Shown here one piece after another: positions 10,306-41,653 of a stretch of DNA of 64,000 bases. The stretch comes from Escherichia phage PNJ1902. The notes under the pieces were generated by a model, which was not told the DNA's origin, made no database searches, and saw only the letters and a list, made by a program, of their open reading frames with translations. The position numbers and the translations under genes are program-made. The stretch lies in sequence record OK254197.1, one strand, 5' to 3'. Each line of letters starts with the position of its first letter. Positions within the stretch are counted from its first letter, which is position 1.

Positions 10306-10548
10306 TTACGATTCCTTGAGCAAAGAAGCAAGTTCAGCATAGACTTTATCTAACTCAAAGCCGATGCGAAGAGACACGTTTGTTTTCCGTTGTTTAAGTA
10401 ACCACTCGGATATGTTAGGGATGCCAGCTAATCTATGTGGTACCACCCTACATAGCTTCTCCGAAGTGTCGTAAACAGGAACTTTACGCTCTTTTACTGG
10501 GAACTTCCTTGTTTCCCATTTTTTATTCTTCACTGTCATTTCTAGCAC
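10306..10548 (-). CDS. Hypothetical protein
   Basis: 80 aa ORF between PN25 region and helicase gene. Confidence 0.35.
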   Translation of the reverse strand: MLEMTVKNKKWETRKFPVKERKVPVYDTSEKLCRVVPHRLAGIPNISEWLLKQRKTNVSLRIGFELDKVYAELASLLKES

Positions 10549-13312
10549 CTAGCTCTGCCATTGCTTCATCATGCATATGTTTCTCCTCATCAGTCATAAA
10601 CTTATATGGGATTGGCATACACTCGATTTTACAATAGGTTCTGTACCAGTCTACAATATTCTCCGTGTTCATATCCTTACCAATACCCATCATACCAAGA
10701 TACATTCTCGCATATTTTGGGTTAGCACTCTGACCTGTTTTAAGGAAGAAATCTTTCTTCTTACCTTTCAGAGCTTCTATGAATGGTTTGATAGTGACAT
10801 TTGAACACTTCTTAATATCTTCCCAGAACATCTCGTGCATTTTATGGAAGAATGCCGCTCGATCATTCGGTTTATCTTTGATATATTGTTCAACGTGCTC
10901 AACTGTTACATCTTTAATAGACTCAAGATGATAGTAGCGAACAAGAAGTAGTTTAGCCTCATACGCATCTGCATGGCGTGGAGCACAATAATCAGGAGTT
11001 GAATACAAAATGGCTTTGATTCGCTCTTCCGTATACTCTTTTCCTGCACCTTCGATAGTTCCCCAGCTTTCACTGAAAATATCAATAGTTGCACCCTGAT
11101 CAAGCAAGTAATAACGTAAGGTACTAGTATAGTTTCTAGATTCCAGCTCTCTACGACGTGCGTATAATTGCTGTGCTAACTCCAGCCAACCTTCATCAAT
11201 GTTATATTGTTCAGAACCTGCGGAGAATCCACTCGTAGATTTATCAATAAAATAATAAATGTTCTGAGCGCCACGGTCGCGCCTGATTGCTTGGAAACGC
11301 ATGTTTGGCGCTTGGTTACTGGTTCTAGTAATAACGAATACGTTATCAAAGTAGTTGAAGTCAACGCCACTCGTTACGGATGGACTACATAATAAGCAAT
11401 CAATTTGTTGATCAATTAGCTCATTAGTTGTGTAATCCAGAATACGTCGAATATCTACATCAGACGTAGAATTTGAGTGGATTTCCTTAACTAGGGCACC
11501 TGTATTACGACGTAATGCCATACCCTTCTCATTCAGTTCATCCGGCCCACAGTCAGATACTAGGATAGATTTCTCACCCATCTCTAGAGAAGTCTGAAGT
11601 GCAACCCAAATACTGGATTCATCCGGGAACTCATAAGCATGAGCTTTTGACAGCATCTTACGGTGATGGTTGTAAAATGCAACCGGTTTATCAAAATCAA
11701 TTAGAGAACCGTAGGCTTCAATCGTCTCAGCACTAATATCACCATCAGATAAGATTACAGTTTTAGCTGTCATGAGGATGTCACGTAGAACTTGAATACA
11801 TTCGCGACGTTGTTTAACAACGGGGGCGAATAATAGATCATTCATTACAGCGTCACATTCATCAATAAAAATGGTGTCTATTTGACCAATAAAACTCTTG
11901 AACTTATGCAAAGAGTGAATAGTTGTGGACATACGGTCAATAGCGCCACGCTTAAAATTAAGCATATCTACAGACTTATCATATTGTCCTGCACTAAATT
12001 TCTTAGCATTTGAAGATACCAGCGCTCTAGTATTTGTAACTGCTAAAAAGTTGCCAGGAAGAACACCTGCGTCCAGCCATTTAGTTACTGCCGTAGTTTT
12101 ACCAGTACCAAGACTTGCCTTAACAAATGTTATATGGCCTTTTGGGGGCACAATGTTAATCTTCAGGTATGGAACTTCTGGTGGAGAATCCACTTCTAAT
12201 TTCTTGAGTGGAACACCTTTCAGATTTAATGGAATCTCACGTTTAGAATTATTAACAAACGCTTTGAGAGCCTGCTTGCGACCGTTATTAAAGTAATCTT
12301 GAATATTACGACTATTATCTTTAGTTGCAATATATTCAGATAAAGCGGGTTTAATCTCACGTTCTAGCCATGCGAAATCAACACCATCCTCTAATGCTCT
12401 ATGGTATAGTTTGGGGATAATACGCAAGTACACCCCATCCTCAGCTTCTTCCAATTCGCTGATGGTTTCTTCTACTTTATCAGACGCGATCTTTTTGCCT
12501 TTAATTTGGTCAAGTAAGGAATAGAATTCCTCTTTAAACTCTCCTCTAGTTGTTTCATAATCAACCAGATTATTGGGCAAATTTACCTTCGAACCTTTAA
12601 CATACACCAGACGTGGCTTACTCTCCGCTTTAAACGGATCTACAATACCATCGCTAAATAAAGGGTCGGCAAAATAGTGAAGCTGGACAGATGAATAATA
12701 AGCTAAGTCGGCAATGTCAAAACCGAATTTTTGCTTACTACTATCGTTGATGGATGTAAATAAGAACTTTAGCTGACCCTGAGTTACCTTGACGTTAGAT
12801 TCTAGCATTAAGTGCATTCGGATACCTGGTTTTAGGCCAGCCGAAGATGATGCATGAGCAATAAACCCTGCATCAAGAGGAAACATGTCCTCACTAATAC
12901 TATTCAACATCTTAATAATGTGGCGGGCCATGCCTACAAGATTAAACTTGTCGTACCCACCGGTATCTAGGATACCATCCACGTCCATAGCAATAATATT
13001 GCTGGGGTTGGATACATTAAAGTTACCTTTCTTACGCCGCACGTTATTTTTAGGTGCAAGACATCGACCTCGTACCGCAACGATATGAGGATCAGACGTT
13101 AAACGTCTCATAAGTGGTAACATTTCGGCAAGGCTTTGCGGGTCATGCTCTTCTATTACATCAAATTTGAAGGGCATAGAGGCTGGTTTACCTTCTGGAT
13201 GCTCTTTCGAGAATCGCTTGGCAAAGGTATAATCCTCCGCTTTGATTTCTCGCCAAATACCTGTTGCTAAATCACGAGAAAATCCGGCGTGACCTTGAAG
13301 AATAGAAAACAC
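10523..13312 (-). CDS. Large SF2-type helicase / putative replication-origin-binding protein
   Basis: 929 aa; Walker A GTGKTT, Walker B-like IFIDECD. Confidence 0.6.
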   Translation of the reverse strand: MFSILQGHAGFSRDLATGIWREIKAEDYTFAKRFSKEHPEGKPASMPFKFDVIEEHDPQSLAEMLPLMRRLTSDPHIVAVRGRCLAPKNNVRRKKGNFNVSNPSNIIAMDVDGILDTGGYDKFNLVGMARHIIKMLNSISEDMFPLDAGFIAHASSSAGLKPGIRMHLMLESNVKVTQGQLKFLFTSINDSSKQKFGFDIADLAYYSSVQLHYFADPLFSDGIVDPFKAESKPRLVYVKGSKVNLPNNLVDYETTRGEFKEEFYSLLDQIKGKKIASDKVEETISELEEAEDGVYLRIIPKLYHRALEDGVDFAWLEREIKPALSEYIATKDNSRNIQDYFNNGRKQALKAFVNNSKREIPLNLKGVPLKKLEVDSPPEVPYLKINIVPPKGHITFVKASLGTGKTTAVTKWLDAGVLPGNFLAVTNTRALVSSNAKKFSAGQYDKSVDMLNFKRGAIDRMSTTIHSLHKFKSFIGQIDTIFIDECDAVMNDLLFAPVVKQRRECIQVLRDILMTAKTVILSDGDISAETIEAYGSLIDFDKPVAFYNHHRKMLSKAHAYEFPDESSIWVALQTSLEMGEKSILVSDCGPDELNEKGMALRRNTGALVKEIHSNSTSDVDIRRILDYTTNELIDQQIDCLLCSPSVTSGVDFNYFDNVFVITRTSNQAPNMRFQAIRRDRGAQNIYYFIDKSTSGFSAGSEQYNIDEGWLELAQQLYARRRELESRNYTSTLRYYLLDQGATIDIFSESWGTIEGAGKEYTEERIKAILYSTPDYCAPRHADAYEAKLLLVRYYHLESIKDVTVEHVEQYIKDKPNDRAAFFHKMHEMFWEDIKKCSNVTIKPFIEALKGKKKDFFLKTGQSANPKYARMYLGMMGIGKDMNTENIVDWYRTYCKIECMPIPYKFMTDEEKHMHDEAMAELGARNDSEE

Positions 13313-13810
13313 AACAATACTCCTGTGTTGGTTAATCGAAAATCTTTTCTTTAGGACTATTCAGAAAGAATAGAACAACTATTACTACTGTTTACGTAAA
13401 CATCAATTATCATCAAGCAATATGAATAAGTTATCATATCTCAGTGCTGTGCTCTCTTCGCTCATATACAGAATAGAACCTAGGTCATTGGCCGCTAAGC
13501 CGATTCTATTTGTCCTCACTATCCTATTGGTAGGTGACTACTGTACGTGCCGCCATTCGCTGCTCTTTTCGTTCGCACCCCCATATAAAGCTCTGCCTAT
13601 ATAACGAGCTAAATATGCACGGTTTGGATTTACCTTTCCGAATTCAGGGTACACAGATCACTTAATTGAAGATTAACTAATGCAATATAAACACTAGTAA
13701 TAGTTAAAACAACCCTTAATGGGGCAGCCTAACTGTTCCGTATCGCGGATTGTAAACAAGAAAAATTAGCAAAATCAATTTTTACTAATGTCTCTCAATT
13801 CAATATAAAT

Positions 13811-13839
13811 ATTATATCAAGATTTTGGGCATCCGGCAA
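13811..13839 (-). promoter_or_regulatory. sigma70 promoter
   Basis: RC: TTGCCG-17-TATAAT; fires toward helicase gene across ~480 nt ORF-poor leader. Confidence 0.55.
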
Positions 13840-13933
13840 GTAAAATTTTCCGGATGGTGCTATCAGTGTCTTTGAGCATAGAGAAAACCGAGCCAAAATG
13901 ACTCGGTAATCAGAGTTCAGCTAATAAAAATCA

Positions 13934-14323
13934 TTAGTCATTTAATCCCGGAACATAGATCCCAACACGGCTTAACTGTTCTTTAGCTTCTGCGAGAATA
14001 TCTGGAGTGTACTCCCAAATATCATCTTCCACCTGTAAAAGATGGGGCGAACAACCGTCACCAGGCACACGACATATGGCCAAACCACGTGGATGGAATA
14101 TAGAGAAGTTTAGGGCAACAATTAAACCCATAGCGGACAATTCATTCCAGTCCATCTCCCACTCCCTGGCATATCCAGATAGGAAAACGCCAATGCATGG
14201 ATCATCTATTTGCTGCTCAGGAAAAGTGAAGGAGGCTTGTCTTACCCCCAACCAACGTTGTAGCAGCTTCTCCGCACGTTTCACCAAACTAGGGTCAATC
14301 TGACGCCAATATACTTGTTCCAT
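13934..14323 (-). CDS. Hypothetical protein (paralog of 14333-14761)
   Basis: 129 aa; shares PCIG ... MGLxxALN(F/Y) ... (Y/M)(V/I)PGL motifs with neighbour. Confidence 0.55.
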   Translation of the reverse strand: MEQVYWRQIDPSLVKRAEKLLQRWLGVRQASFTFPEQQIDDPCIGVFLSGYAREWEMDWNELSAMGLIVALNFSIFHPRGLAICRVPGDGCSPHLLQVEDDIWEYTPDILAEAKEQLSRVGIYVPGLND

Positions 14324-14332
14324 TCTGCCTCC

Positions 14333-14761
14333 TTAAGCAGTTAAACCTGGGATCATATACCCGAAACGGCGAAGTTTCTGAATCCCCTCATTTACTTCTT
14401 CCGGTGAGTAAGACCAACCATAACGTTCATTAACCTGAAAACCAGGAGATTCACTAGTTTTATAGTTAACAACGAGGCGATGCTTAACAGGCATAAACAG
14501 CTTATAATTTAACGCAAAAACTAAGCCCATTTCGTCTAACTCTTTCCAGCCGACAATCTCTTCAAGACCCTCCTCTACCTGAACAATTAAACCAATACAG
14601 GGAGCCTCATCAATATCATCTTTAAAAGCAAAGGAGATTTCGTTATTCTCACACCATATTTTCAAGGAATTAATAGCCTCATTATACAGGCTAGAGGGGA
14701 GAGTACGCCAAAAGTTAACTAAAATTGGGTTAACTTCTTTAGAGAAGACATTATTGAACAT
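14333..14761 (-). CDS. Hypothetical protein (paralog of 13934-14323)
   Basis: 142 aa; same motif set as neighbour. Confidence 0.55.
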   Translation of the reverse strand: MFNNVFSKEVNPILVNFWRTLPSSLYNEAINSLKIWCENNEISFAFKDDIDEAPCIGLIVQVEEGLEEIVGWKELDEMGLVFALNYKLFMPVKHRLVVNYKTSESPGFQVNERYGWSYSPEEVNEGIQKLRRFGYMIPGLTA

Positions 14762-14763
14762 AT

Positions 14764-15270
14764 TTACACCTTAAATTGTTGTAAGGATTTACACATTTCA
14801 AGATCTGGGCTAAATTCTAGCATATAGCTAACAGCTTTTAAATCTTGAAGATTTATCCCAGTCCTACCGTTGACTATAACCGTTGGATACTGATACATCA
14901 TAGCACCCGCATCATCAAGCACACACCAATGTTTGAGCTTATGATTTTCAACAAAGCGAAGAACAGAATTACCCCTAGATAATCCACCCCCAGTAAAATC
15001 CGTTGTACCAAGAAAACGATCGATAAGACCTAATCTGGTCATAATCTGAACGTTCTCCATTTCATTTCTGACAGAAAACCAAGATGATACTCCAACAATC
15101 ATTATCGGAGAAGGACGAATAAAGTCCTGAAAAGCCTTGAGAAGCGGTTTGAAAACCCAATCACTTCCAAAGAAAATCTTTTCATCATCAGGTGCATGAT
15201 GGTGGGAGATGCTCGAATTGAGCACCCCATCAATATCTAGAAAAATAATTGGAGTATTACTTATTTCCAT
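14764..15270 (-). CDS. HAD-superfamily phosphatase-like protein
   Basis: 168 aa; N-terminal FLDIDGVL (DxDG motif I) and VLDDAG (motif IV-like). Confidence 0.5.
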   Translation of the reverse strand: MEISNTPIIFLDIDGVLNSSISHHHAPDDEKIFFGSDWVFKPLLKAFQDFIRPSPIMIVGVSSWFSVRNEMENVQIMTRLGLIDRFLGTTDFTGGGLSRGNSVLRFVENHKLKHWCVLDDAGAMMYQYPTVIVNGRTGINLQDLKAVSYMLEFSPDLEMCKSLQQFKV

Positions 15271-31973: not shown

Positions 31974-32047
31974 TGCCGTCCTAGTATAATTGGTATTATC
32001 AAGCCGTAACTGGTGGAAGATGTAGGTTCGAATCCTACGGTCGGTAA
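31974..32047 (+). ncRNA. tRNA-like element (degenerate)
   Basis: GTAGGTTCGAATCCTAC T-arm and 6/7 bp acceptor pairing, tRNA-sized, but no clean D or anticodon arm. Confidence 0.25.
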
Positions 32048-32548
32048 GAACTGGATAACTGGTGCTTTTAATGTAAAAGCTTCCGAGGTTAGTTGCGCAC
32101 TGCCTAAACCACGCGGTAGTTGGTTCCAGACTAGCCAACCAGTCTGCTGAATAGTTTTATTACGATTTAACTATGTCCAGACTAAAGAAGAACTTTAGAA
32201 GGTATTCTAGGATAGTGAAGTTCTTTCTCCATATCGGAGTAGTTTTTCAAGCTATCCACAAAGTGGGAAATGCTGACATGAGAGATGTCACTAATGGTGC
32301 ACAATAGCACAGGTAATTCGCGATAATTCCTGTTGAGTAGCAGCAAAAGGCGGGAAGTCATGACCCCAAGCCTAACCGAGTCCTCAATATACCGCAGGAC
32401 ATAACCACTAAGTCACCCTGACTTAAACTGGAAAATAATAGACGTTACCGTATTTTGTCTTGAAATACTTAATGAGTGAGACTTATGACTCTCCCGGTAT
32501 CGTCTGTATTTTTAAGAGTTTTTACGAGAGTTCTTAAAAATACTTAAA

Positions 32549-32623
32549 CGGGGTGTAGTCTAAGGGAGAGGCAGGAGTCTTCTAAATTCCTTTATGCAGG
32601 TTCGAATCCTGTCACCTCGGCCA
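32549..32623 (+). tRNA. tRNA-Arg (anticodon UCU), tentative
   Basis: Hand fold: acceptor CGGGGTG/CACCTCG, anticodon stem GGAGT/ATTCC loop CTTCTAA, T-arm GCAGG-TTCGAAT-CCTGT, encoded CCA. Confidence 0.45.
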
Positions 32624-32657
32624 ATTTTATTAACTGTAACTAAAACAAAGGAAATAT

Positions 32658-33605
32658 ATGTTTGCTACTAAAAACACTAAAGAACTGACTTATGAGCAAA
32701 AATTAATGCGTAATATCAAACGTTGGGGTATTGGGGCTGCAGTTGGTTTGGTAGGTTTAGTTCTGGCTCTTAACTCTTACACTGTTGTTCAAGACGGTAC
32801 TGTTAAAACCCAGACTTTCCTGGGTAAAGTTGACCCTAGCCCAGTATTACCCGGCTTTCATATTGTAAATCCTTTTGCTTCTTTCGATACTTTTAGTACT
32901 AAAGATATTGCTCTAAAATTAGATAAACTTCAGGTTCCTAGTCAGGATAAGTTTAAATCCACTGTTGACCTGACTGTTATGTTGCAGTTTGATGGTTCTA
33001 AGGCACCGATTAACCGTATTAATGCAGGTACTCAGGATCAAGCATTAGACAAATATGTAACTGAAAAATTACTGTCTACTATTCGTGAGTTTGGTAAGTC
33101 TGTACCTAAAGCACAAGATTTATTTGATGCTAAAATTCAGGCTCAATTGCAAACCGCAATTCAACAGGAAGTTGAAGAGTATGCACGCCCATATGGTTAC
33201 ACAGTTAAGCAGGTGTTTCTTCAGGATATTACTTTGCCACCGGTAATCATGGAACAGGTACAGAATACCAAAGTTCGTGAAGAGCAAGTTAACGCTGCGA
33301 AAGCTGAACTTGCCCGCGTTGAACAGGAAGCACAGCAAAAAGTTAAACAAGCAGAAGCAGATCGTGAAGCTCGCAACAACCAAGCTATTGCTAATGAACG
33401 TGACGCAGATGCTAAACTGTACGCAGCTAAGAAAGAAGCTGAAGCTAACGCCGCACTGCAACGTACCATTACTCCTGAGATGATTCGTTGGAAACAACTG
33501 GAAGTTGAAATGATTCGTGCTCAGAAGTATCAAGGTGGTGTACCTCAGACTGTAGTTGGCACTGGCTATGATGGTCAAATGATTATGGATATGCGTAACA
33601 AGTAA
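32658..33605 (+). CDS. SPFH/band-7 (prohibitin-like) membrane protein
   Basis: 315 aa; N-terminal TM helix, SPFH-like core, C-terminal Ala/Gln/Glu coiled coil. Confidence 0.55.
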   Translation: MFATKNTKELTYEQKLMRNIKRWGIGAAVGLVGLVLALNSYTVVQDGTVKTQTFLGKVDPSPVLPGFHIVNPFASFDTFSTKDIALKLDKLQVPSQDKFKSTVDLTVMLQFDGSKAPINRINAGTQDQALDKYVTEKLLSTIREFGKSVPKAQDLFDAKIQAQLQTAIQQEVEEYARPYGYTVKQVFLQDITLPPVIMEQVQNTKVREEQVNAAKAELARVEQEAQQKVKQAEADREARNNQAIANERDADAKLYAAKKEAEANAALQRTITPEMIRWKQLEVEMIRAQKYQGGVPQTVVGTGYDGQMIMDMRNK

Positions 33606-33630
33606 TAGTTACACGTAATCTTCGAACTAA

Positions 33631-33662
33631 GCCCGCGTTTTCTCCGAGAGCGCGGGCTTTTC
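33631..33662 (+). terminator. Intrinsic terminator
   Basis: GCCCGCG...CGCGGGC hairpin + TTTT. Confidence 0.7.
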
Positions 33663-33683
33663 TGTATTTAAGGCAAAAGAAAA

Positions 33684-33712
33684 AGCCCCTAAGTCTTTCG
33701 ACTAGGGGCTTT
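33684..33712. terminator. Bidirectional hairpin terminator candidate
   Basis: AGCCCCTAAG...CTAGGGGCT flanked by A-run upstream and T downstream; lies between convergent genes. Confidence 0.5.
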
Positions 33713-33929
33713 ACTGTTTGGTTCTTTAGAACCATATACTCTTGTTACAGCAACCACCCATACGGGAGGCCAATCTTGACTGAAAATCTACTCTAGGGGG
33801 CAGGATAAGAGTAGGCTTAAAGGCAAACGGATTGAACGCCGGTATTTGCGTAAACATTGCTGGAGAGCAACAACGTGCTACAGGCATTGGGCAGCACGAA
33901 ACAGATTTTCTGCAACACATAATTCCTCC

Positions 33930-34346
33930 TTAGGAGTTATTACCACCATTTTGAGCTTTTGCAACTTGGCTTTGGCAGAAGCTATTAAACTTACCCATAA
34001 GTGATACAAGCTGCTTCCCATCCTCTGTCTTTGCGAAGTCTTCGAAAAGGGCTAGTACTGCCTGTCCTTCCGCAGAAACCTGCGGTTGTTGGGTTTGTTG
34101 CTGAACTTGCTGCTGCGGCATCTGTTGCTGCATTTGTTGGGGCATTTGCGACTGCCCGCTCATTTGCTGCATCATTTGCATAGGACTCACACTTCCAGGG
34201 TTTTGCTGGAGTTGTTGCTGCATCTGTTGCGCTTCTGCTAAACGCTGTTGCAATTGTTGTAAGTAGGGGTTATCCAGACCCGGAATGGGCTGCTGGGAGC
34301 CCATACTTTGATTAAGTCCGTTATTTACAAAACCATATTTACTCAT
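33930..34346 (-). CDS. Gln-rich low-complexity protein
   Basis: 138 aa; long Q/M-rich repeats. Confidence 0.45.
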   Translation of the reverse strand: MSKYGFVNNGLNQSMGSQQPIPGLDNPYLQQLQQRLAEAQQMQQQLQQNPGSVSPMQMMQQMSGQSQMPQQMQQQMPQQQVQQQTQQPQVSAEGQAVLALFEDFAKTEDGKQLVSLMGKFNSFCQSQVAKAQNGGNNS

Positions 34347-34367
34347 AATGGGCTCCTCCCCTTAATA

Positions 34368-35354
34368 TTAAGCCGGCAGTTTAGCCTGCAGACCAGCCAG
34401 AGTCTGAGTGATAGCACCAAGACTTAAAGCGATTTGATTAATTACCTGACCGTTAGCACCACTACCCGCAGCGATTGCTTCACGTAGGCGACATGCGTCT
34501 AACTCGTCCTGGATACGTGCAGTAGTTACACCAGCGATCGCAGTCTGAAGTTCACAGCAACATTCAGCGATCTGACGTTCCAGAGAGTTCTGGTTAGCAC
34601 ACATCTGAGCCTGAACAGCGGCAAACTGGTTATTAGTTTGTAAAGTCTGCTGGAAAGCGATCTGTGCAGAATCAAACTTATCTTGTGCACGAGCTATCTG
34701 GTTAGCTGCGAAAGATTGATCAATCTGGCGAGAAAGATCGAACTGACCCTGAATAACGTTGCGAGTTTCCTGGCAGATCTGATTAGACAGATTAGCACCT
34801 GTACCATAGATCGTAGTTAGTACAGACTGAGTATCACGGCTCTGGTTTTGGGATGTCTGGCTAAAACCATTGTTAACTGCGCTTAAAACAGCCCCAGTAC
34901 CCTGGTTAGCTTCTGTACGAGTAGTGTTAATAGCTGCTAGAATACTAGCGGTATCTTGATTCTGAAGTACTGCATCAACTGCGCTACCATCACCAACTAC
35001 ACCACGTCCACCGAATCCACCGAAACCACCGAATCCGCCTGTTAATAGAGCACCGATTAGGATAGCTCCGAATAGTCCCATACCTTCACCACCGAAAGCA
35101 CCTGCGTTTGCTGGGTAACCACCTAGTAGGCCAGGGAAGCCACTAGTGAATACGTTTACTGGTTCTTGCATTTTATGTTTTCCATGTTTATGACAATGTT
35201 CATCATCGTCATCTTCTTCATCATCATGTTCACGATGTTTTTCTTCGTAGGCTCTGACCTTCTCCCACTTTTTCTTATCTGATTCCTCGTGACGGTGCAG
35301 TTCTGCTGCAACGCTAGCGACGGTCTCAGGACTCTTAGCTACTTCTTCTGTCAT
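34368..35354 (-). CDS. Gly-rich membrane-associated hypothetical protein
   Basis: 328 aa; acidic/His-rich N-terminus, GGFGGFGGFGG glycine-zipper segment, Q/A-rich coiled region. Confidence 0.5.
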   Translation of the reverse strand: MTEEVAKSPETVASVAAELHRHEESDKKKWEKVRAYEEKHREHDDEEDDDDEHCHKHGKHKMQEPVNVFTSGFPGLLGGYPANAGAFGGEGMGLFGAILIGALLTGGFGGFGGFGGRGVVGDGSAVDAVLQNQDTASILAAINTTRTEANQGTGAVLSAVNNGFSQTSQNQSRDTQSVLTTIYGTGANLSNQICQETRNVIQGQFDLSRQIDQSFAANQIARAQDKFDSAQIAFQQTLQTNNQFAAVQAQMCANQNSLERQIAECCCELQTAIAGVTTARIQDELDACRLREAIAAGSGANGQVINQIALSLGAITQTLAGLQAKLPA

Positions 35355-35419
35355 TTTTTAACACCTCCTAGTATATAGAAAATGTGTGTCTCTTTGATCA
35401 CTCATCCATAACATATACT

Positions 35420-35447
35420 TTACACTACCCCAACAAAAATGTCAAGG
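35420..35447 (-). promoter_or_regulatory. Putative sigma70 promoter
   Basis: RC: TTGACA-17-TAAAGT. Confidence 0.35.
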
Positions 35448-35561
35448 GGTCTTTAAAAATTGCCCCCGGATTTTTAGTGGGGTCACAAATTTTGGTCCTC
35501 ACCACTTATCTGCTACCCTTAAGTGCCCTATGATTTTCCTCTAAAAAGTTAAAAATTTTGA

Positions 35562-35590
35562 TTGCTTGAATGCTAAATTCTCTGTATAAT
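35562..35590 (+). promoter_or_regulatory. sigma70 promoter (T5 early type)
   Basis: TTGCTT-17-TATAAT + ATAAATTTGAGAGAGG leader. Confidence 0.7.
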
Positions 35591-35620
35591 ATATCTATAA
35601 ATTTGAGAGAGGAATAAGAT

Positions 35621-36139
35621 ATGAATGTTGATGAGCTAACACAGCACCTCTTATCTAGAGGATTTGATACAGATAAATATCATTGCTGGTTAAGCCCGGA
35701 AGGGTGGCTAACAGTCCCATTGTATGACTTCTCTGGGATGTTGCGGGGCTATCAGACGTATAATCCTTCTGCTCCAAAAGGGCATGGTAAGTGCCCCTTT
35801 GAGGCTAAATATTTTACCTACTCCACTACACAGTGTGTATGGGGACTAGAAACTCTCAATGGAGATGAAAAAGTAGTATTGATTGCTGAATCTGTATTTA
35901 AGGCAGTTGCATTACATAATGCTGGTTATCCAGCCCTAGCAATGTTGGGTTCTACCCCAGGAAAAGCGTTATTAAAGCAACTGAAATTACTACCTTTTAA
36001 ATTGGTAGCTGTCGGGGATAATGATCCTGCGGGTGAAAAATTTGCTAGAAAATTGAACGGCTTTGTTTCTCCTGTAGATGTGGATGAGATGTCTACCGAA
36101 AACTTGAAAAATTTTCTTGCTATGAAGCTAAATTTCTAA
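35621..36139 (+). CDS. Toprim-domain protein
   Basis: 172 aa; conserved Glu (LIAES) and DxD (GDNDPAG). Confidence 0.5.
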   Translation: MNVDELTQHLLSRGFDTDKYHCWLSPEGWLTVPLYDFSGMLRGYQTYNPSAPKGHGKCPFEAKYFTYSTTQCVWGLETLNGDEKVVLIAESVFKAVALHNAGYPALAMLGSTPGKALLKQLKLLPFKLVAVGDNDPAGEKFARKLNGFVSPVDVDEMSTENLKNFLAMKLNF

Positions 36140-36160
36140 TATAATATATCTTATAAATTC

Positions 36161-36249
36161 GGAAGAATAGCATAACGGTATTGCAGCAGATTGCTAATCT
36201 GTCGGTTTGAAATATAGCCTTGTGGGTTCGATTCCCACTTCTTCCGCCA
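36161..36249 (+). tRNA. tRNA-Ser (anticodon GCU), class II
   Basis: Hand fold: acceptor GGAAGAA/TTCTTCC, loop TTGCTAA, long variable arm, T-arm GTGGG-TTCGATT-CCCAC, CCA encoded. Confidence 0.55.
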
Positions 36250-36255
36250 GATTTT

Positions 36256-36333
36256 GGTTCTCAAGCTCATATGGTATGAGCACCCGGCTCATAACCGGAA
36301 GGTACGTAGGTTCGAATCCTCGGGGAGCCACCA
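36256..36333 (+). tRNA. tRNA with CAU anticodon (Met/Ile2), tentative
   Basis: Acceptor GGTTCTC/GGGAGCC (2 GU), loop CTCATAA, TTCGAAT T-loop with weak 3-bp T-stem. Confidence 0.45.
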
Positions 36334-36351
36334 ATTAAATAGAGGTCACAA

Positions 36352-36540
36352 ATGGATCTATATATAGTTTATGTTGTGTTTATTCAAGATAGAGAATACC
36401 CGGATGAATATAAAAAAGGATATAGGCTAGCCAGAGCTACCTCTGAAGCCCAAGCTATGGATAAAGTGGCAGATTATATGATTACGGTAGAAAACGTACA
36501 CTATATAGACTACCTCGAAGCCTCAAAAGTAATTGACTAA
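36352..36540 (+). CDS. Hypothetical protein
   Basis: 62 aa ORF. Confidence 0.45.
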   Translation: MDLYIVYVVFIQDREYPDEYKKGYRLARATSEAQAMDKVADYMITVENVHYIDYLEASKVID

Positions 36541-36549
36541 GGAGACTAT

Positions 36550-36735
36550 ATGTCCAAGTTTCAAGAACTCAAGCAAGAGCTAGAAGAATGTGCCTGCCCT
36601 GAGTGTAGGGGAATTGGTGAAAGTTCTGATGCAGAAGCAGGAGATACTTTTTGCAATATCTGGGTTTGCCCAAATTGCAGTGGTACAGGTATTAATCCTA
36701 ACTGTGGTATTTCCCTAGATATTGAACGAGGATAA
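36550..36735 (+). CDS. Cys-rich small protein
   Basis: 61 aa; CxxC...CxxC pattern. Confidence 0.45.
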   Translation: MSKFQELKQELEECACPECRGIGESSDAEAGDTFCNIWVCPNCSGTGINPNCGISLDIERG

Positions 36736-36836
36736 TACCTATGAAACTAAAAGATTATTATATTGGTTGGTTTGTGGGACTAGTAGTAGGATTTTCACTA
36801 GGCTATAATATGTATCAACTAATAAACTGATTACAC

Positions 36837-36913
36837 GGGGGTGTAATCGAATTGGCATAGGTACTGGACTTAAAATTCAGGTTTTGTGGGTTCGAATCCC
36901 ACCACCCCTACCA
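36837..36913 (+). tRNA. tRNA with apparent UAA anticodon but class I (short variable arm) architecture
   Basis: Acceptor GGGGGTG/CACCCCT, anticodon stem CTGGA/TTCAG loop CTTAAAA, 5-nt variable loop, T-arm GTGGG-TTCGAAT-CCCAC, CCA encoded. Confidence 0.45.
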
Positions 36914-37088
36914 AATTAAGGAAATAAGATGTATAGACATCCACCTCCGCCAACACGTCGTTCTAGGGAAGTTATCCTCATGGAATTGACTAAAAACTTC
37001 AAGGCAACTCTTGAAGACAGAGATCTAGGCACGGATGAAGACATTGATTTTATTTGTAGACTATTAAAGATGAAACTGGAGAAAAAAC

Positions 37089-37295
37089 ATGGCTAATCCT
37101 GAAATTACAGCACAACGTTTCATGCTTAAAGGCATGATTGCTGAGGCAGGTATAACTCAAGAGGTTGCAGATTTTCATAAGCAATTTCTTGACATTATAA
37201 CTCTAGCTAAAGAGACTGGAGAAAAAGAGCATGGAGCGGCAATTATGGCTATATCTCTTATTAGTCTAGACTTGGCTGAAGAATCTGGAATTTAG
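37089..37295 (+). CDS. Hypothetical protein
   Basis: 68 aa ORF. Confidence 0.45.
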   Translation: MANPEITAQRFMLKGMIAEAGITQEVADFHKQFLDIITLAKETGEKEHGAAIMAISLISLDLAEESGI

Positions 37296-37325
37296 CTCCT
37301 CCAAACAGAATTTTTAAAAATGTAC

Positions 37326-37355
37326 TTGCCTTTTGCTTTAAATTTCTGATATAAT
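37326..37355 (+). promoter_or_regulatory. sigma70 promoter
   Basis: TTGCCT-18-TATAAT. Confidence 0.6.
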
Positions 37356-37385
37356 AGTTATATAAATTGATGAAGGAGTTAATGA

Positions 37386-37661
37386 ATGCAAAATCGTGTT
37401 ATAGCAGCTGGTATTGAAAGTGCAATCTGTAAATCCTGGGAAGGCTGGGAAGGTGAGATTGAATGGCTTTATTTCTACGATGTAGAACTTCTGCCGGAAA
37501 TTAAAGCTAAATGTATTGAAGCTGGCATGGCTCCAGATGCAAAAGCTGATATTGATATTTCAATGTCTGAACTTAAAGGTCGTGTAATTACTGTTAGTGA
37601 TGAGGGCGAAGAAGTTTTCGAACTTCCGTTCTCCTTAACTGTCGCTCCTAAGTTCGACTAA
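37386..37661 (+). CDS. Hypothetical protein
   Basis: 91 aa ORF with RBS AAGGAG. Confidence 0.5.
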   Translation: MQNRVIAAGIESAICKSWEGWEGEIEWLYFYDVELLPEIKAKCIEAGMAPDAKADIDISMSELKGRVITVSDEGEEVFELPFSLTVAPKFD

Positions 37662-37692
37662 CTAATACAGCACTGAGCAAGTTCTTTAAAAT

Positions 37693-37726
37693 TTGACTTG
37701 CTCAGTGCCTTAAAACTTGGTATAAT
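37693..37726 (+). promoter_or_regulatory. sigma70 promoter driving tRNA cluster
   Basis: TTGACT/TTGCTC-17-TATAAT. Confidence 0.65.
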
Positions 37727-37793
37727 AGTTATCTAATTTGGAAACATATTTAAAAGTGTTTAAATTAGAATTTTTTTGAATACTTCTAAATAT

Positions 37794-37881
37794 GGGGAAA
37801 TATTCTGTAAGTGGTAGCAGAGCTGACTGTAAATCAGTTGTCATTGCGACTCGGGTGGTTCGACTCCATCTTTCCCCACCA
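37794..37881 (+). tRNA. tRNA-Tyr (anticodon GUA), class II
   Basis: Acceptor GGGGAAA/TTTCCCC, loop CTGTAAA, ~15-nt variable arm, T-loop TTCGACT, CCA. Confidence 0.6.
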
Positions 37882-37887
37882 ATTTAA

Positions 37888-37964
37888 GTCCTGTTAGACA
37901 AACTGGTAAAGTCACTACCCTTTCAAGGTAGGATTTGCGGGTTCGATCCCCGCACAGGACGCCA
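37888..37964 (+). tRNA. tRNA-Glu (anticodon UUC)
   Basis: Acceptor GTCCTGT/ACAGGAC, anticodon stem CTACC/GGTAG loop CTTTCAA, T-arm GCGGG-TTCGATC-CCCGC, CCA. Confidence 0.65.
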
Positions 37965-37972
37965 ATTCCTGC

Positions 37973-38049
37973 ATTCCTAGAGTGTTACTGGACAGCATGT
38001 CGGTCTCCAAAACCGTACGGTCTAGGTTCGAGTCCTAGTAGGTTTGCCA
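37973..38049 (+). tRNA. tRNA-Trp (anticodon CCA), acceptor stem with two U-U mismatches
   Basis: Anticodon arm CGGTCTCCAAAACCG as in E. coli tRNA-Trp; T-arm CTAGG-TTCGAGT-CCTAG; acceptor ATTCCTA/TAGGTTT. Confidence 0.5.
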
Positions 38050-38055
38050 AAATTT

Positions 38056-38130
38056 GCACCTTTAGCTGAGATGGATTAGCGCTTGCCTGAAGAGCTTGAG
38101 AGGTTCGTTCGATACGAACAGGGTGCACCA
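38056..38130 (+). tRNA. tRNA-Phe (anticodon GAA), tentative
   Basis: Acceptor GCACCTT/AGGGTGC, loop CTGAAGA at canonical position, anticodon stem with two U-U mismatches, T-arm GTTCG-TTCGATA-CGAAC. Confidence 0.45.
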
Positions 38131-38147
38131 ATTTGAAGGAGCTGCTT

Positions 38148-38420
38148 ATGCATCCTGAAAACTTCTTTATTTACTGCGCGGATAAGTCGCTGAAACGTAG
38201 AATTAACAAAGTCTATCATTATCGTGCTAGTCAACAGCCTTATGTATACGCTTTTGACGGTGATCACATTCCATTAGAACAATTATCTTGTGATTACATG
38301 ATATTGAAGAACTTTGACGAGACAAAGATCTCAAGCGTTCACAATCGACAGAATCCATTAACGTGGAAATATAAGAAGAAAAAGAAAGGCATCAAATTCT
38401 TAAAAAATGTAGTTGCTTAG
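38148..38420 (+). CDS. Hypothetical protein
   Basis: ~90 aa from ATG 38148 with RBS AAGGAG (table start 38133 is TTG). Confidence 0.5.
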   Translation: MHPENFFIYCADKSLKRRINKVYHYRASQQPYVYAFDGDHIPLEQLSCDYMILKNFDETKISSVHNRQNPLTWKYKKKKKGIKFLKNVVA

Positions 38421-38441
38421 TTTCCAAAAGTTCTGTATAAT
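38413..38441 (+). promoter_or_regulatory. sigma70 promoter
   Basis: TTGCTT-17-TATAAT. Confidence 0.65.
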
Positions 38442-38489
38442 AATTACATAAATTGAACTGGAGAAGCAACATGATAGAATAAGATAAAT

Positions 38490-38565
38490 CGACCGTTGGC
38501 TGAATGGCTTAGGCGAAGGATTGCAAATCCTTTTTATGTGAGTTCAAATCTCATGCGGTCGTCCA
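38490..38565 (+). tRNA. tRNA-Cys (anticodon GCA)
   Basis: Acceptor CGACCGT/GCGGTCG, anticodon stem AAGGA/TCCTT loop TTGCAAA, T-loop TTCAAAT, CCA. Confidence 0.6.
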
Positions 38566-38717
38566 ATTTGCTGAAAGAATTGTTTTAACAATTCAGGCAC
38601 GCGTAGGAACACTGTCTCCGTAATTGAAAGATGAGGCACGGTTTGGAGAGGTATGCCGCTACACGCTACGGTGCTAACTCCGTCTAGGTGAAAATCCTAG
38701 TCAGCAATATAAATTTA

Positions 38718-38800
38718 GGGTCGTTAGCCAAGCGGTTTGGCGGTGGACTGTTAATCCATGTCGAAAGACAACGTAGGTTCGAATCCTACACGGCCCGCCA
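38718..38800 (+). tRNA. tRNA with class II architecture (13-nt variable arm, G73) but apparent GUU anticodon
   Basis: Acceptor GGGTCGT/ACGGCCC, 3-bp D stem, anticodon stem GTGGA/TCCAT loop CTGTTAA, variable hairpin GTC-GAAA-GAC, T-arm GTAGG-TTCGAAT-CCTAC. Confidence 0.4.
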
Positions 38801-38902
38801 AATTCTGTGTAGAGTTAAGTAAACCGGTAGCCAACCAGCTATCATTGCTGACATCGAATTCAGCCACAGATACCATTTTCATTAATAACTGAGGAAACAA
38901 GC

Positions 38903-39088
38903 ATGTCCAAGAATGTAATTGCGCAGCTAGAAGTTCATCGTGATAGCACTATCAACAATATTGAAGTTGAGAAGAAATACATCGAAGAACTTAAACATGA
39001 TATACTAGTAAGTCTTAATCGTCTTAATGTACGAAAAGAGTTTCTTAAGGAACTTAATGCAGCTATTGAAAAACTCAAAGCTGAGTAA
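38903..39088 (+). CDS. Hypothetical protein
   Basis: 61 aa ORF with RBS GAGGAAACAAGC. Confidence 0.45.
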   Translation: MSKNVIAQLEVHRDSTINNIEVEKKYIEELKHDILVSLNRLNVRKEFLKELNAAIEKLKAE

Positions 39089-39097
39089 ATGAATTAT

Positions 39098-39174
39098 GCG
39101 ACAGGGGCTGGCTTGGTAATGGTACTCCCCTGTCACGGGAGAGAATGTGGGTTCGAATCCCATCGGTCGCGCCA
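39098..39174 (+). tRNA. tRNA-Asp (anticodon GUC)
   Basis: Anticodon stem CTCCC/GGGAG loop CTGTCAC, T-arm GTGGG-TTCGAAT-CCCAT, CCA. Confidence 0.6.
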
Positions 39175-39200
39175 AATTAAACTAGCACGAGAAATATGCT

Positions 39201-39548
39201 ATGATTAATGCTAAAGAAGAGTTGTTACTTGCCCTAAAGAATACTAATTCTGAAGTTAAGTGTATTAAGATAGAATTCGGTTATTATGGAGACAAAGAAG
39301 TTTGGGTATTGCCCGTAGGTTATACAGAAAAAGATATTGAAGATTTTCTAAATAATCTAGACTTTAAATATGACTCGGGTTTCGGTGGACAATTGCTTTA
39401 TGGTAACGTATGGTTTACTGATGGAACTTGGTTAGAACGTGGTGAATATGATGGTTCTGAATGGTGGGAGTATAAGACTACACCAGCAATCCCTGAGGAA
39501 TGCCGAACAATTAATGGTGAAGTAGATAATACTTTACGGTTAAACTAA
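39201..39548 (+). CDS. Hypothetical protein
   Basis: 115 aa ORF. Confidence 0.55.
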   Translation: MINAKEELLLALKNTNSEVKCIKIEFGYYGDKEVWVLPVGYTEKDIEDFLNNLDFKYDSGFGGQLLYGNVWFTDGTWLERGEYDGSEWWEYKTTPAIPEECRTINGEVDNTLRLN

Positions 39549-39553
39549 TAAAA

Positions 39554-39660
39554 TTTCAGTGCAGAACACGGAGCTAGCAATTCGGAAGTGCTGACTCATG
39601 ATAAGCTGCCTATGTACTTGCGAAGCGGTCGTGTCCAAGACTCGGACTCTTGCACTGAAA
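39554..39660 (+). ncRNA. Hairpin-closed structured element (candidate small RNA)
   Basis: 10-bp terminal inverted repeat TTTCAGTGCA/TGCACTGAAA enclosing ~87 nt, no ORF. Confidence 0.3.
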
Positions 39661-39670
39661 ACAATCAAAC

Positions 39671-39791
39671 ATTCTAGCGTGGTTGATGGGGAAACCAGCT
39701 TGGCTAGGGCAGAAGCTCGTTCGATTCGAGTGAAAGAATGGTTCTCGTAAGTCCGCACAAGTGATAACAGGTTCGAGTCCTGTCTAGAATG
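39671..39791 (+). ncRNA. tRNA-like cloverleaf with ~48-nt insertion in the anticodon loop
   Basis: Perfect 7-bp acceptor ATTCTAG/CTAGAAT, D stem TGGT/ACCA, anticodon stem GCTTG/CAAGT enclosing 55 nt, T-arm ACAGG-TTCGAGT-CCTGT. Confidence 0.4.
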
Positions 39792-39806
39792 ACACTATAA
39801 AGTTTA

Positions 39807-39920
39807 CTTATTATGTAGGTTCCGATAGATCGGCGGGTCTATTCTGGCATTTAAGAGAGGTCTCGCAAACTTCTTTGTCAGCCGTGGGGTTGGTAGCCTC
39901 CAGGTGGCCTACACAATAAG
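39807..39920 (+). ncRNA. Hairpin-closed structured element (candidate small RNA)
   Basis: 13-bp inverted repeat CTTATTATGTAGG/CCTACACAATAAG (12/13 match) enclosing ~88 nt with internal CCGATAGATCGG hairpin. Confidence 0.3.
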
Positions 39921-39940
39921 TAAATTTATTAAAAATTCAT

Positions 39941-39969
39941 TTGCTATTCTGCTTAATTCTCTGTATAAT
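39941..39969 (+). promoter_or_regulatory. sigma70 promoter (T5 early type)
   Basis: TTGCTA-17-TATAAT. Confidence 0.7.
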
Positions 39970-40001
39970 ATATTTTATAAAGTGAAGAGAAGGAAAGCAA
40001 A

Positions 40002-40160
40002 ATGAAACACAAGATAGCTCAAGTTTTTATGGCATTATGGTGTATGCCAGTAGCTATAACAGCATTTAATCTAGATACTTTTACTATAGAAGAAAAATGT
40101 ATCGGGTTAGTTAGCGGCTTTAGTATGCTGGGCTTATCCTTGTTGTGGTTGAAGAAATAA
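40002..40160 (+). CDS. Small hydrophobic protein
   Basis: 52 aa ORF with RBS AGGAAAG, hydrophobic core; below table cutoff. Confidence 0.4.
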   Translation: MKHKIAQVFMALWCMPVAITAFNLDTFTIEEKCIGLVSGFSMLGLSLLWLKK

Positions 40161-40164
40161 TATT

Positions 40165-40242
40165 CTCCGTGTAGCTCAGTTTGGCCAGAGCGTTTCGTTT
40201 GGGGCGATAGGGTCGGGGGTTCAAATCCTCCCACGGAGACCA
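40165..40242 (+). tRNA. tRNA-Pro (anticodon UGG)
   Basis: Acceptor CTCCGTG/CACGGAG, D arm GCTC...GAGC, loop TTTGGGG, T-loop TTCAAAT, CCA. Confidence 0.55.
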
Positions 40243-40248
40243 AACAAT

Positions 40249-40326
40249 TGCGGGTTAGATCTCTGGTAGAGATCGCTAGTCTCATAAGCTAGAAAGAGGT
40301 AGGTTCGATTCCTGCACCCGCTTCCA
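40249..40326 (+). tRNA. tRNA with CAU anticodon and unpaired 1:72 (initiator-like), tentative
   Basis: Acceptor TGCGGGT/ACCCGCT with U1-U72 mismatch, D stem GATC/GATC, anticodon stem CTAGT/GCTAG loop CTCATAA, CCA. Confidence 0.5.
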
Positions 40327-40346
40327 TTTTAATAGAGGATTTCGAA

Positions 40347-40514
40347 ATGAAAGTATTTCGATTAGTAGTAAGTGACAAACGTTTAGGTAAGAATACATCA
40401 AAATCCTTAATCGCTCATTACGGTAAAAATTGGGATGAAGTAATGGCAGAGTTTAATACTAATCACCCTTACTTGAAAGTTCACTCTATTAAAGAAGTAT
40501 ACAATGGTTACTAA
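40347..40514 (+). CDS. Small hypothetical protein
   Basis: 55 aa ORF with RBS GAGGA; below table cutoff. Confidence 0.35.
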   Translation: MKVFRLVVSDKRLGKNTSKSLIAHYGKNWDEVMAEFNTNHPYLKVHSIKEVYNGY

Positions 40515-40515
40515 T

Positions 40516-40594
40516 AGATCGCTAGCTCAATAGGTTTAGTAGCATCCGACTTTTAATCGGAAGGTTCTGGGTTCGAGTCCCAGGCGATCTACCA
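40516..40594 (+). tRNA. tRNA-Lys (anticodon UUU)
   Basis: Acceptor AGATCGC/GCGATCT, anticodon stem TCCGA/TCGGA loop CTTTTAA, T-arm CTGGG-TTCGAGT-CCCAG, CCA. Confidence 0.6.
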
Positions 40595-40612
40595 ATTTCA
40601 AGAAAAACGCAG

Positions 40613-40641
40613 TTGCTTGATGCTTAATTTCTTGTTATAAT
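40613..40641 (+). promoter_or_regulatory. sigma70 promoter
   Basis: TTGCTT-17-TATAAT; followed by ~230 nt ORF-free transcribed spacer. Confidence 0.65.
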
Positions 40642-40879
40642 ATTTATATAAATTGATGAGGAGAGATCCTCATCATAGTTCACTAAGGTATTAGCTCGAC
40701 CTAGGACTGGCTGCCAAAAAGCACGATCCCTTCTACTTGGGAGAAGTTCTAGATTAGTCCACTAGATTCAGCGGCAACTGAATAGTGTATCGGGTTTGCG
40801 AGATGACGCAGTTCCTTCCGCTCGAAGCGAAGGTGCTGTAGTTACGCCGAGCTAATAGCCTTAGTAAACTAAAGATTTT

Positions 40880-40954
40880 GGGCGGTTAGTTTATCTGGGA
40901 AAATACCTGACTTGCACTCAGGAGTGAGGAGTTCGACTCTCCTACTGTCCACCA
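40880..40954 (+). tRNA. tRNA-Ala (anticodon UGC)
   Basis: Anticodon stem CCTGA/TCAGG loop CTTGCAC, T-arm AGGAG-TTCGACT-CTCCT, CCA. Confidence 0.6.
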
Positions 40955-40972
40955 AATTAAAGGGTATGTAGT

Positions 40973-41541: not shown

Positions 41542-41653
41542 AATTTGATGGTCAGAGTAAATTAAACCTACTATCTCGGTTGAGCTGTTTTAATGGGTTC
41601 GAATCCCAGCGAGGCGTAACTGCCTGGTGTGATAGGGGCATCATCTTATTATT

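Follow-up and report, generated by a model that had tools for sequence, protein, structure and literature searches.

What occupies the long stretch of DNA ahead of the replication helicase gene in T5-like phages? We examined this question in Escherichia phage PNJ1902 (sequence record OK254197.1), of which a stretch of 64,000 nucleotides (nt) was analysed, referred to here as the window. Within it, a gap of 621 nt (13313-13933) separates two open reading frames (ORFs), position 13313 being the base after the GTG of a 929-amino-acid (aa) ORF and position 13933 the base before the stop of a 129-aa upstream ORF (13934..14323). The 929-aa product carries the Pfam domain Herpes_ori_bp (PF02399) at residues 389-533 and belongs to PHROG 3712, 'replication origin binding'. 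The D2 protein of T5 is a bipolar superfamily 2 (SF2) helicase and proposed replication initiator with a Herpes_ori_bp-type domain at residues 392-532 (PMC3632103), and the 929-aa ORF product, with its domain at the same position, is this D2 protein. We found that the gap encodes a large RNA structure, supported by covariation and specific to one phage family, before this replication-initiator gene.

The gap is shared throughout the family. The 801 nt around it are 96-98% identical to Tequintavirus (T5-type) phages, the match being present in 526 phage records. Among relatives in IMG/VR that were found with the helicase N-terminus, the gap, measured from the DUF7415 gene upstream to the helicase, is present in 32 of 32 and spans 601-622 nt, exceeding this only where it holds an HNH endonuclease gene or a 97-nt insert. 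It recurs in more distant phages, measuring 590 nt in Pectobacterium My1, 597 nt in DU_PP_V, 601 nt in the Klebsiella type, 715 nt in Providencia PR1 and 823 nt in Proteus Stubb. Long gaps are also found in the Vibrio phages IW18 (710 nt) and JSF10 (1100 nt), and Aeromonas TS3 has 1590 nt before the helicase without a credible coding sequence (CDS). The GenBank records of T5_ev219, S114 and Shivani show no annotated CDS in the gap. Spurious-looking CDS are annotated in the leader of HMD-P3, DU_PP_V, vB_SenS-3, Stubb and D302 (a 'tail tube protein' and hypothetical proteins of 29-55 aa).

A predicted sigma-70 promoter opens the leader. Its -10 hexamer ends 499 nt before the D2 GTG, and the predicted transcription start near 13804 gives a leader of approximately 492 nt, in agreement with the promoter that a sequence-only reading of this DNA had placed some 480 nt 5' of the helicase start. 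Promoter-like hits are not enriched in the region (2 found versus 4.2 expected in shuffles); the promoter at 13839-13811 is nevertheless credible because it is conserved in relatives. It was seen in sequence types A, B and C, in Providencia PR1 and in Pectobacterium DU_PP_V and My1. Together with the initial transcribed sequence TTGAGAG it is conserved in the phages of E. coli/Salmonella and Pectobacterium, and on its own in those of Klebsiella, Providencia and Proteus. A putative promoter is annotated at the same position in the record of phage S114. In Proteus phage Stubb, two sigma-70 promoters match the consensus perfectly (12/12; L072 2205-2233 and 2935-2964), one at the start of its 823-nt gap and the other about 40 nt before the helicase start. 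The parts of the locus, in the direction of transcription, are as follows.

13887..13907, minus strand: terminator-like hairpin, a 9-bp stem then a U-rich tail, ending the upstream DUF7415 gene unit (terminator scan; conserved in relatives).
13811..13839, minus strand: predicted sigma-70 early promoter, -35 TTGCCG at 13839-13834, 17-nt spacer, TG-extended -10 TATAAT at 13816-13811 (10/12 matches).
13758..13796, minus strand: H1, AU-rich hairpin GAGAGA-C-AUUAGUAAAA / UUUUGCUAAU-U-UUUCUU, running into a U tract (from the fold).
13709..13753, minus strand: H2, conserved stem-loop with ACGGAACAGUUAGGCUGCCCC (16 pairs, 33 distinct sequences).
13666..13706, minus strand: P1, 5' strand of the long closing helix (inverted repeats I1 and I2; 35 pairs).
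13419..13662, minus strand: core domain P2-P6, 244 nt, about 11 helices (RNAalifold, pair counts and cross-type alignment).
13662-13651 / 13452-13443, minus strand: P2, core helix.
13649-13646 / 13581-13578, minus strand: P3, core helix.
13611-13588, minus strand: P3b hairpin, core helix (P3b/c in the architecture).
13576-13562, minus strand: P4, core helix.
13546-13541 / 13471-13466, minus strand: P5, core helix.
13538-13512, minus strand: P5a, core helix.
13510-13502 / 13480-13472, minus strand: P5b, core helix.
13493..13498, minus strand: invariant UUAGCG hexaloop on a 3-bp mini-stem GGC/GCC inside P5b (supporting stems covary).
13440-13434 / 13425-13419, minus strand: P6, core helix.
13376..13416, minus strand: P1, 3' strand of the long closing helix (inverted repeats; 35 pairs).
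13357..13373, minus strand: 3' hairpin CUAUUC-UUUCU-GAAUAG, directly after P1 (pair counts, types A and B).
13310..13324, minus strand: ribosome-binding site (RBS) AGGAG at 13324-13320 and GTG start codon of D2 at 13312-13310 (from the sequence; RBS annotated in phage Shivani); the GTG follows AGGAG by 8 nt.
10523..13312, minus strand: D2 gene, 929-aa SF2 UL9-like 'replication origin binding' bipolar helicase (Pfam and PHROG).

Conservation is distributed unevenly along this leader. Counting identical columns on a MAFFT alignment with phages that share 83-85% identity in their helicase DNA, we obtained 98-100% identity for the first 98 nt (H1-H2, 13804-13707), which are conserved at every base, more than the fold alone would need. 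The last 63 nt at the 3' end are 84-86% identical in the same comparison. The central region falls into two classes, being 93% identical in Epseptimavirus (type A') and approximately 40% identical, and thus unalignable, in 'type B' Tequintaviruses, so that the centre of the leader behaves, in these alignments, as an exchangeable cassette between near-invariant flanks. The sequence GCTTAGCGGC was exact in 36 of the 36 loci fetched at that stage, including Providencia phages with helicases only 55-59% identical. Overall, we distinguish seven or more sequence types of the core, which have kept the helices at an identity of only about 40%, and the element occupies the same locus in phages with helicase identities as low as 59-74%.

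The individual elements of the fold are maintained across these types. H1 differs in sequence and still pairs in DU_PP_V, My1, Klebsiella and PR1. It is followed by UUUUUCUUGUUU, its AU-rich stem falls below the G-C criterion of the terminator scan, and its position is annotated as 'terminator' in phage Shivani; H1 is possibly an attenuator or an operator. All 16 pairs of H2 are invariant or G-U-compatible across the 33 distinct sequences, with the motif GAACAGUnnGGCUGC in 34 of 36 loci and a GG/CC to AG/CU exchange in the Klebsiella type. The flanks of the core form P1 with 31-47 pairs in every type despite their differing sequences, with near-continuous runs of approximately 19-23 bp in most types and 3-10 G-U pairs in each. 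Core length is 238-246 nt in all seven types, and the invariant features are a 2-nt bulge in P2, the GAGAAGUG junction, the UUAGCG hexaloop (on a mini-stem of 2-3 bp across types) and the P6 loop GUUGCCA, type A departing from the others in the junction and in P6. Spacings counted from the sequences, and therefore independent of alignment, are 61-64 nt from GAGAAGUG to CUUAGCGG and 53-56 nt from CUUAGCGG to GUUGCCAYCCC. The place of the 3' hairpin is taken by a hairpin of other sequence in the Klebsiella, DU_PP_V and L216 types.

Pairing within types was tested on MAFFT alignments, which are unambiguous at this level, and RNAalifold structures, for 18 distinct type A and 15 distinct type B sequences. 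In type A, 99.9% of the cells in 142 pairs were paired and six pairs showed compensatory changes, compared to 0-1 in slid controls; 14 further pairs had a one-sided change, and all but two such cells were kept paired through G-U. In type B, the corresponding values were 136 pairs, 99.9% of cells and five compensatory pairs, which are located in P2, P3, P4 and P6, again with 0-1 in slid controls.

For comparison between types, we aligned nine sequences by hand, representing the seven types A, A', B, L216, DU_PP_V, My1 and Klebsiella, and verified each row as contiguous real sequence. In three types MAFFT displaces the UUAGCG anchor by a column; it also staggers the strands of P5b and re-gaps N-padded hand alignments, and we therefore used our own pair counts and a descriptor search in place of a covariance model. 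Of 486 cells in 61 pairs, 95.3% were standard pairs, with compensatory changes in 50 of the 61 pairs. Slid controls reached 33-45% paired cells and 11-15 compensatory pairs, and shuffles 67% and 29 +/- 3, with none of 500 shuffles attaining the observed values. In P2, for example, CUGUG/CACAG (type A) is replaced by CUGCG/CGCAG (type B), CUACAC/GUGUAG (Pectobacterium) and CUAGAA/UUCUAG (Klebsiella), and P3 occurs as CCCG/CGGG, GCCG/CGGC, UUCG/CGAA and GCGG/CCGC.

These comparisons also distinguish the strand that folds. The minus strand has a minimum free energy (MFE) of -133.3 kcal/mol (z = -3.1), with none of 100 shuffles as low, and the plus strand an MFE of -106.7 kcal/mol (z = -2.4). Across types, G-U cells outnumber A-C cells by 48 to 11, and since G-U pairs are also found in P1, we conclude that the helicase-sense strand is under structural selection. 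Pairs are kept by compensatory and G-U-compatible substitutions on this one strand, as expected of selection on an RNA rather than on an element of duplex DNA. Of the three proposals made from the sequence alone (a long structured 5' untranslated region, a regulatory RNA or an origin-associated region), the first is thus strongly supported by a conserved, covarying multi-helix fold on the transcribed strand, a conserved promoter and the lack of a conserved ORF, and the structure is far larger and more conserved than that proposal implied.

Coding capacity offers little to set against this. The longest minus-strand ORF in the gap is 38 aa, and the plus strand has one 60-aa ORF with an ATG start (13422..13604) in T5-type phages; type B phages have a 60-aa TTG ORF on the minus strand, and small CDS are annotated here in some GenBank records. 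Epseptimavirus copies, in which the core is 93% identical, have no ORF of at least 45 aa on either strand and lack the 60-aa plus-strand ORF. When 98 small ORFs from ten sequence types were compared, matches between types were confined to stretches of 14-33 aa that coincide with the nucleotide-conserved 5' leader (promoter to H2, plus the base of P1 when DU_PP_V is compared with My1), and the ORFs involved are 21-60 aa long, start with TTG and have no RBS. In the Klebsiella type, the H2 frame has acquired non-synonymous changes while its base pairs were kept. None of the three longest small gap ORFs matched a PHROG family. A small protein gene conserved in relatives, the outcome named beforehand as decisive against an ORF-poor leader of about 600 bp, was looked for and not found: no ORF is conserved in position, length and sequence, and the 621-nt gap is confirmed as such a leader.

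Where present, the structured RNA always lies directly 5' of D2 in the same orientation. A descriptor of the P5b/UUAGCG hairpin recovered its expected site in each of eight types spanning T5 to Providencia. In the background, 1.94 Mb of unrelated phage DNA (random contigs returned by a first, unspecific IMG/VR pattern), it matched 12 sites, or approximately 0.004 expected per leader. A stricter three-motif pattern, run against the entire IMG/VR collection, matched seven contigs, every one of them T5-like. In 596 Gb of bacterial genomes this pattern gave six matches; none of these has the hairpin architecture, and all are attributable to chance. A metagenome scan added only 11 loci, one of them the new sequence type L216. 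The descriptor search detected no second copy of the UUAGCG hairpin in the 64-kb window. Two further CTTAGCGG sites (5339 and 6582, plus strand) were considered as members of a UUAGCG-hairpin regulon and rejected, being without hairpin context and compatible in number with chance. In Aeromonas TS3 (L041 719-2308), we observed two UUAGCG-hexaloop hairpins, near 1197 and 1441, and this stretch may contain a duplicated or expanded version of the RNA.

The RNA matches no catalogued family and is not described in the literature searched. With Rfam 15 run on the window at gathering thresholds, no family was found in the interval; E values up to 10 on 13100-14100 gave only three junk hits of 12-16 bits, and E values up to 1 on the loci of ten relatives gave one unrelated sub-threshold hit. 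The families without a match include RNase P RNA, group I and II introns, transfer-messenger RNA (tmRNA), Y RNA/YrlA, GOLLD, ROOL and riboswitches. ARAGORN and Rfam detected no transfer RNA (tRNA) or tmRNA in the interval, all tRNAs of the window lying at 31.9-44.3 kb. A likeness to RNase P RNA (ACAGAAC..CGGCU, GGUAAGAG and GUGAAAG-like strings) was discarded, as no model scores at E = 10 and the order of motifs differs. In the literature searched, we found no description of an RNA or of a mapped origin at this locus.

What, then, might this RNA do? The reading that we favour, tentatively, is that the interval encodes a functional structured RNA module within the D2 early transcript, which RNase III probably cuts out at P1 and which has a role in the expression of D2 or in the initiation of replication. 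Transcription would begin at the conserved early promoter, near 13804 on the minus (helicase-sense) strand, and the 5' hairpins H1 and H2 would form first. The next domain to fold, independently, would be the 244-nt core with its roughly 11 helices, closed by the imperfect 35-40-bp duplex P1. A small 3' hairpin and the D2 RBS would follow, so that in T5 the RNA would physically constitute the 5' leader of the D2 message. Host RNase III could then cut the P1 duplex, which would free the compact core and give the D2 mRNA a new 5' terminus, with the small hairpin as its cap. P1 is a plausible RNase III substrate because it has 31-47 pairs with near-continuous runs of the length given above in most types. 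E. coli RNase III cleaves stems of this size class in T7 early mRNA, the lambda N leader and the processing stems of rRNA. The invariant single-stranded nucleotides (the UUAGCG hexaloop, the GAGAAGUG-type junction and the P6 loop) would be where a protein or ligand binds, perhaps as a surface contacted by an early phage factor and possibly by D2 itself, and this contact would set the amount of D2 or the timing of replication initiation.

Several observations weigh against this reading or parts of it. The P1 helix of the Klebsiella type is interrupted, its longest run being 8 bp. The cross-type counts derive from a hand-made alignment of related sequences and overstate the number of independent events, and the shuffles ignore phylogeny. 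The exact UUAGCG motif is absent in Vibrio T5-like phages and in a metagenomic group (45% helicase identity), in which the helicase is present. The spacing between the UUAGCG loop, or the core, and the start of D2 is not fixed and ranges from 172 to over 1000 nt. It is approximately 172-181 nt for T5-like phages and those of Klebsiella and Pectobacterium, 287 nt for Providencia, 410 nt for Proteus and 870-1110 nt for Aeromonas. Stubb has one of its perfect 12/12 promoters between the RNA and D2. The missing motif, the variable spacing and the Stubb promoter weaken a purely cis-acting role. An expression platform was not found: the terminator scan of T5 predicted no terminator between the core and the D2 start, and the 3' region folds differently in each type. 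The variable distance, the Stubb promoter and the lack of a conserved platform together argue against a simple translational leader. An alternative pairing of GAAUAG with the upstream CUAUUC, or with CUAUUC in D2 codons 3-5, was tried and rejected, the copy in the ORF not being conserved as DNA (Epseptimavirus, type B). We also observed the 10-mer AGAATAGAA(A/C) (RNA reading GUUCUAUUCU) three times on the plus strand of the window, at 13299-13308, 13367-13376 and 13470-13479, corresponding to D2 codons 2-5, the 3' hairpin and the 3' strand of P5b; it is probably not a shared site because types A' and B have not kept the copy in the ORF.

A bolder version, which we regard as possible though doubtful, is that the early transcript releases a member of a new class of large structured RNA (approximately 330-450 nt) that is not a mere mRNA leader. 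Such an RNA might be a partner of replication initiation, for instance as an origin-specifying or priming RNA for the D2 helicase, or else a new ribozyme or ribonucleoprotein (RNP).

Two further explanations, to which we give comparable weight, are less probable than the favoured reading. The first, which we consider rather unlikely, is a stand-alone, trans-acting structured RNA (an RNP scaffold, decoy or ribozyme) that is co-transcribed with D2 and has a target other than D2 expression. Its roughly 11 helices and invariant loop and junction nucleotides exceed what is typical of translational operators, P1 resembles a processing stem, and the variable, sometimes long distance to the D2 start and the separate D2 promoter of Stubb 3' of the RNA would suit such a role, as would a hairpin followed by U6 approximately 85 nt before the start of the origin-binding protein (OBP) gene in Aeromonas TS3 (read by eye; the terminator scan made no call). 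Speaking against it, T5 has no predicted terminator that would separate the RNA from D2, the RNA keeps its place and orientation just 5' of D2, no partner or target is known, and the window holds a single UUAGCG hairpin.

The second, somewhat less likely still, is an element of a replication origin, in which the folded transcript would prime or activate initiation, or the DNA would serve as a loading site for D2. Priming or activating transcripts are known at origins, including the ColE1 RNA II preprimer and the origin transcripts of T4 and T7. We know of no T5 origin that has been mapped to sequence. Electron microscopy of T5 is cited in PMC3632103 as having reported multiple origins. In favour of an origin, the interval adjoins the gene for a UL9-like origin-binding helicase, the proposed T5 initiator (PMC3632103), lies mid-genome in T5 itself (at approximately 49% of 121,750 bp), has a strong conserved promoter and the base-by-base conservation of H1-H2 beyond the need of the fold, and is a hot spot of recombination and insertion (HNH genes, the 97-nt insert and exchange of the core cassette). 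However, the covariation and the excess of G-U over A-C indicate selection on a single-stranded sense fold, which a duplex origin would not need. The interval has no iterons, its only repeat being the threefold 10-nt AGAATAGAA(A/C) with one copy inside an ORF, and there is no marked AT-rich unwinding element and no GC-skew switch, the GC content of 33-35% at 13600-13900 being a modest dip from approximately 40% for the region.

A non-functional mobile-element remnant, with P1 as terminal inverted repeats and types A and B as different elements in one site, would explain the 18-nt inverted repeats 293 nt apart and a central cassette that differs between close relatives with identical flanks, but is very improbable given covarying internal helices, a core length and motif spacing fixed across types, one copy per genome (among the near-full-length matches listed), no target-site duplication flanking P1 and an identical locus in phages with such divergent helicases. 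Equally improbable is a missed small protein gene or leader peptide, for which the two 60-aa ORFs and the annotated small CDS could be cited, given the Epseptimavirus copies, the confinement of cross-type ORF matches to the conserved 5' leader, the Klebsiella changes in H2 and the negative PHROG searches.

Several features of the surrounding DNA deserve mention. Residues 1-380 of D2 (window 12173-13312, minus strand) matched no Pfam family or PDB sequence, and in this N-terminal part D110, D112, S155, S157, G159 and H167 are invariant across eight distant homologues; D2 bears the putative label 'DNA primase' in some records. On the 5' side of the gap (window 13934-15270, minus strand) lie two DUF7415 paralogues of 129 and 142 aa that are 31% identical, and beyond them a 168-aa protein with HAD_SAK_2, the HAD domain of 'Swiss army knife' RNA-repair proteins. 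The locus is an insertion hot spot. In several relatives, HNH homing-endonuclease genes (150-168 aa) are found between the DUF7415 gene and the leader promoter (L010, L014, L018 and L027, at intergenic positions 89-595, and Shivani, L004 2270-2722). A 97-nt insertion between H1 and H2, at the point between window positions 13763 and 13762, is flanked by the 8-nt direct repeat TTTTTCTT and carries its own hairpin UUUACGG...CCGUAAA. It occurs in L015 (about 2000-2100), L020 and L035, in phages of type A (DT571/2) as well as of type B (SP3 and others), and may represent a small mobile element or else an additional RNA module. Further away, a tRNA cluster typical of T5 (window 31975-44287, plus strand) comprises 21 genes according to ARAGORN and 23 according to Rfam, two weak Rfam hits (31975-32046 and 36256-36330) having no ARAGORN call.

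T5 is a classical model phage, and a folded RNA of approximately 450 nt before its initiator gene, conserved more tightly than the gene itself, provides a concrete target for mutation in studies of the start of replication or the timing of D2. In addition, many GenBank records wrongly assign spurious proteins to this interval, which should carry an RNA feature instead.

Among known systems, leaders and stems processed by RNase III, such as the lambda N leader, T7 early mRNA and the rRNA precursors, resemble the T5 RNA in that a long imperfect duplex flanks a folded domain. In phage leaders of this kind, as would be the case here, the early transcript is made by host RNA polymerase, and after cleavage the downstream message would begin with a hairpin. 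Unlike those simple hairpins, the putatively cleaved T5 stem encloses a conserved 244-nt multi-helix domain. The ColE1 RNA II preprimer is comparable as a transcript of approximately 500 nt from a strong promoter, with a conserved fold that matters, beside replication functions. It differs in showing no match in sequence or structure, and no equivalent of its G-rich/C-rich hybrid segment, RNase H site or antisense RNA I was identified in the T5 leader.

Regulatory elements of single genes offer a second set of comparisons. In riboswitch and T-box RNAs, too, the controlled gene is preceded by an intricate conserved fold in its 5' leader, but the T5 core has no terminator/anti-terminator or conserved RBS-sequestering pairing, its distance to the start codon varies, and its gene context suggests no ligand. 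The autogenous translational operators used by T4 (gp32, gp43 and RegA sites) share an invariant hairpin loop 5' of a replication gene and provide a model for the proposed binding of a protein to UUAGCG; they are 20-40 nt long and overlap the RBS, whereas the invariant T5 loop lies at least 172 nt upstream inside a large domain.

The origins of herpes simplex virus 1 (HSV-1), oriS and oriL, are connected to this locus through UL9, which shares the helicase domain PF02399 with D2. They are palindromes able to form hairpins, and UL9 binds duplex boxes that flank an AT-rich centre; in T5, the arms are 250 nt apart and the pattern of conservation is that of an RNA. The type A core contains CGTTCGCAC (window 13570-13578, plus strand), which matches 9 of 11 nt of CGTTCGCACTT, the sequence that we take to be HSV-1 UL9 Box I, a likeness that is probably due to chance because it is absent from type B.

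The closest parallels in scale are GOLLD, ROOL, OLE and raiA, RNAs of 300-450 nt or more with many covarying helices, invariant junction and loop nucleotides and an occurrence in phages, whose biochemistry was unknown when they were discovered. The T5 RNA is set apart from them by its lack of an Rfam match, its position as the 5' leader of a specific gene and its restriction to one phage family. It would join a short list of large and complex bacterial and phage RNAs, which have repeatedly proved unusual in function.

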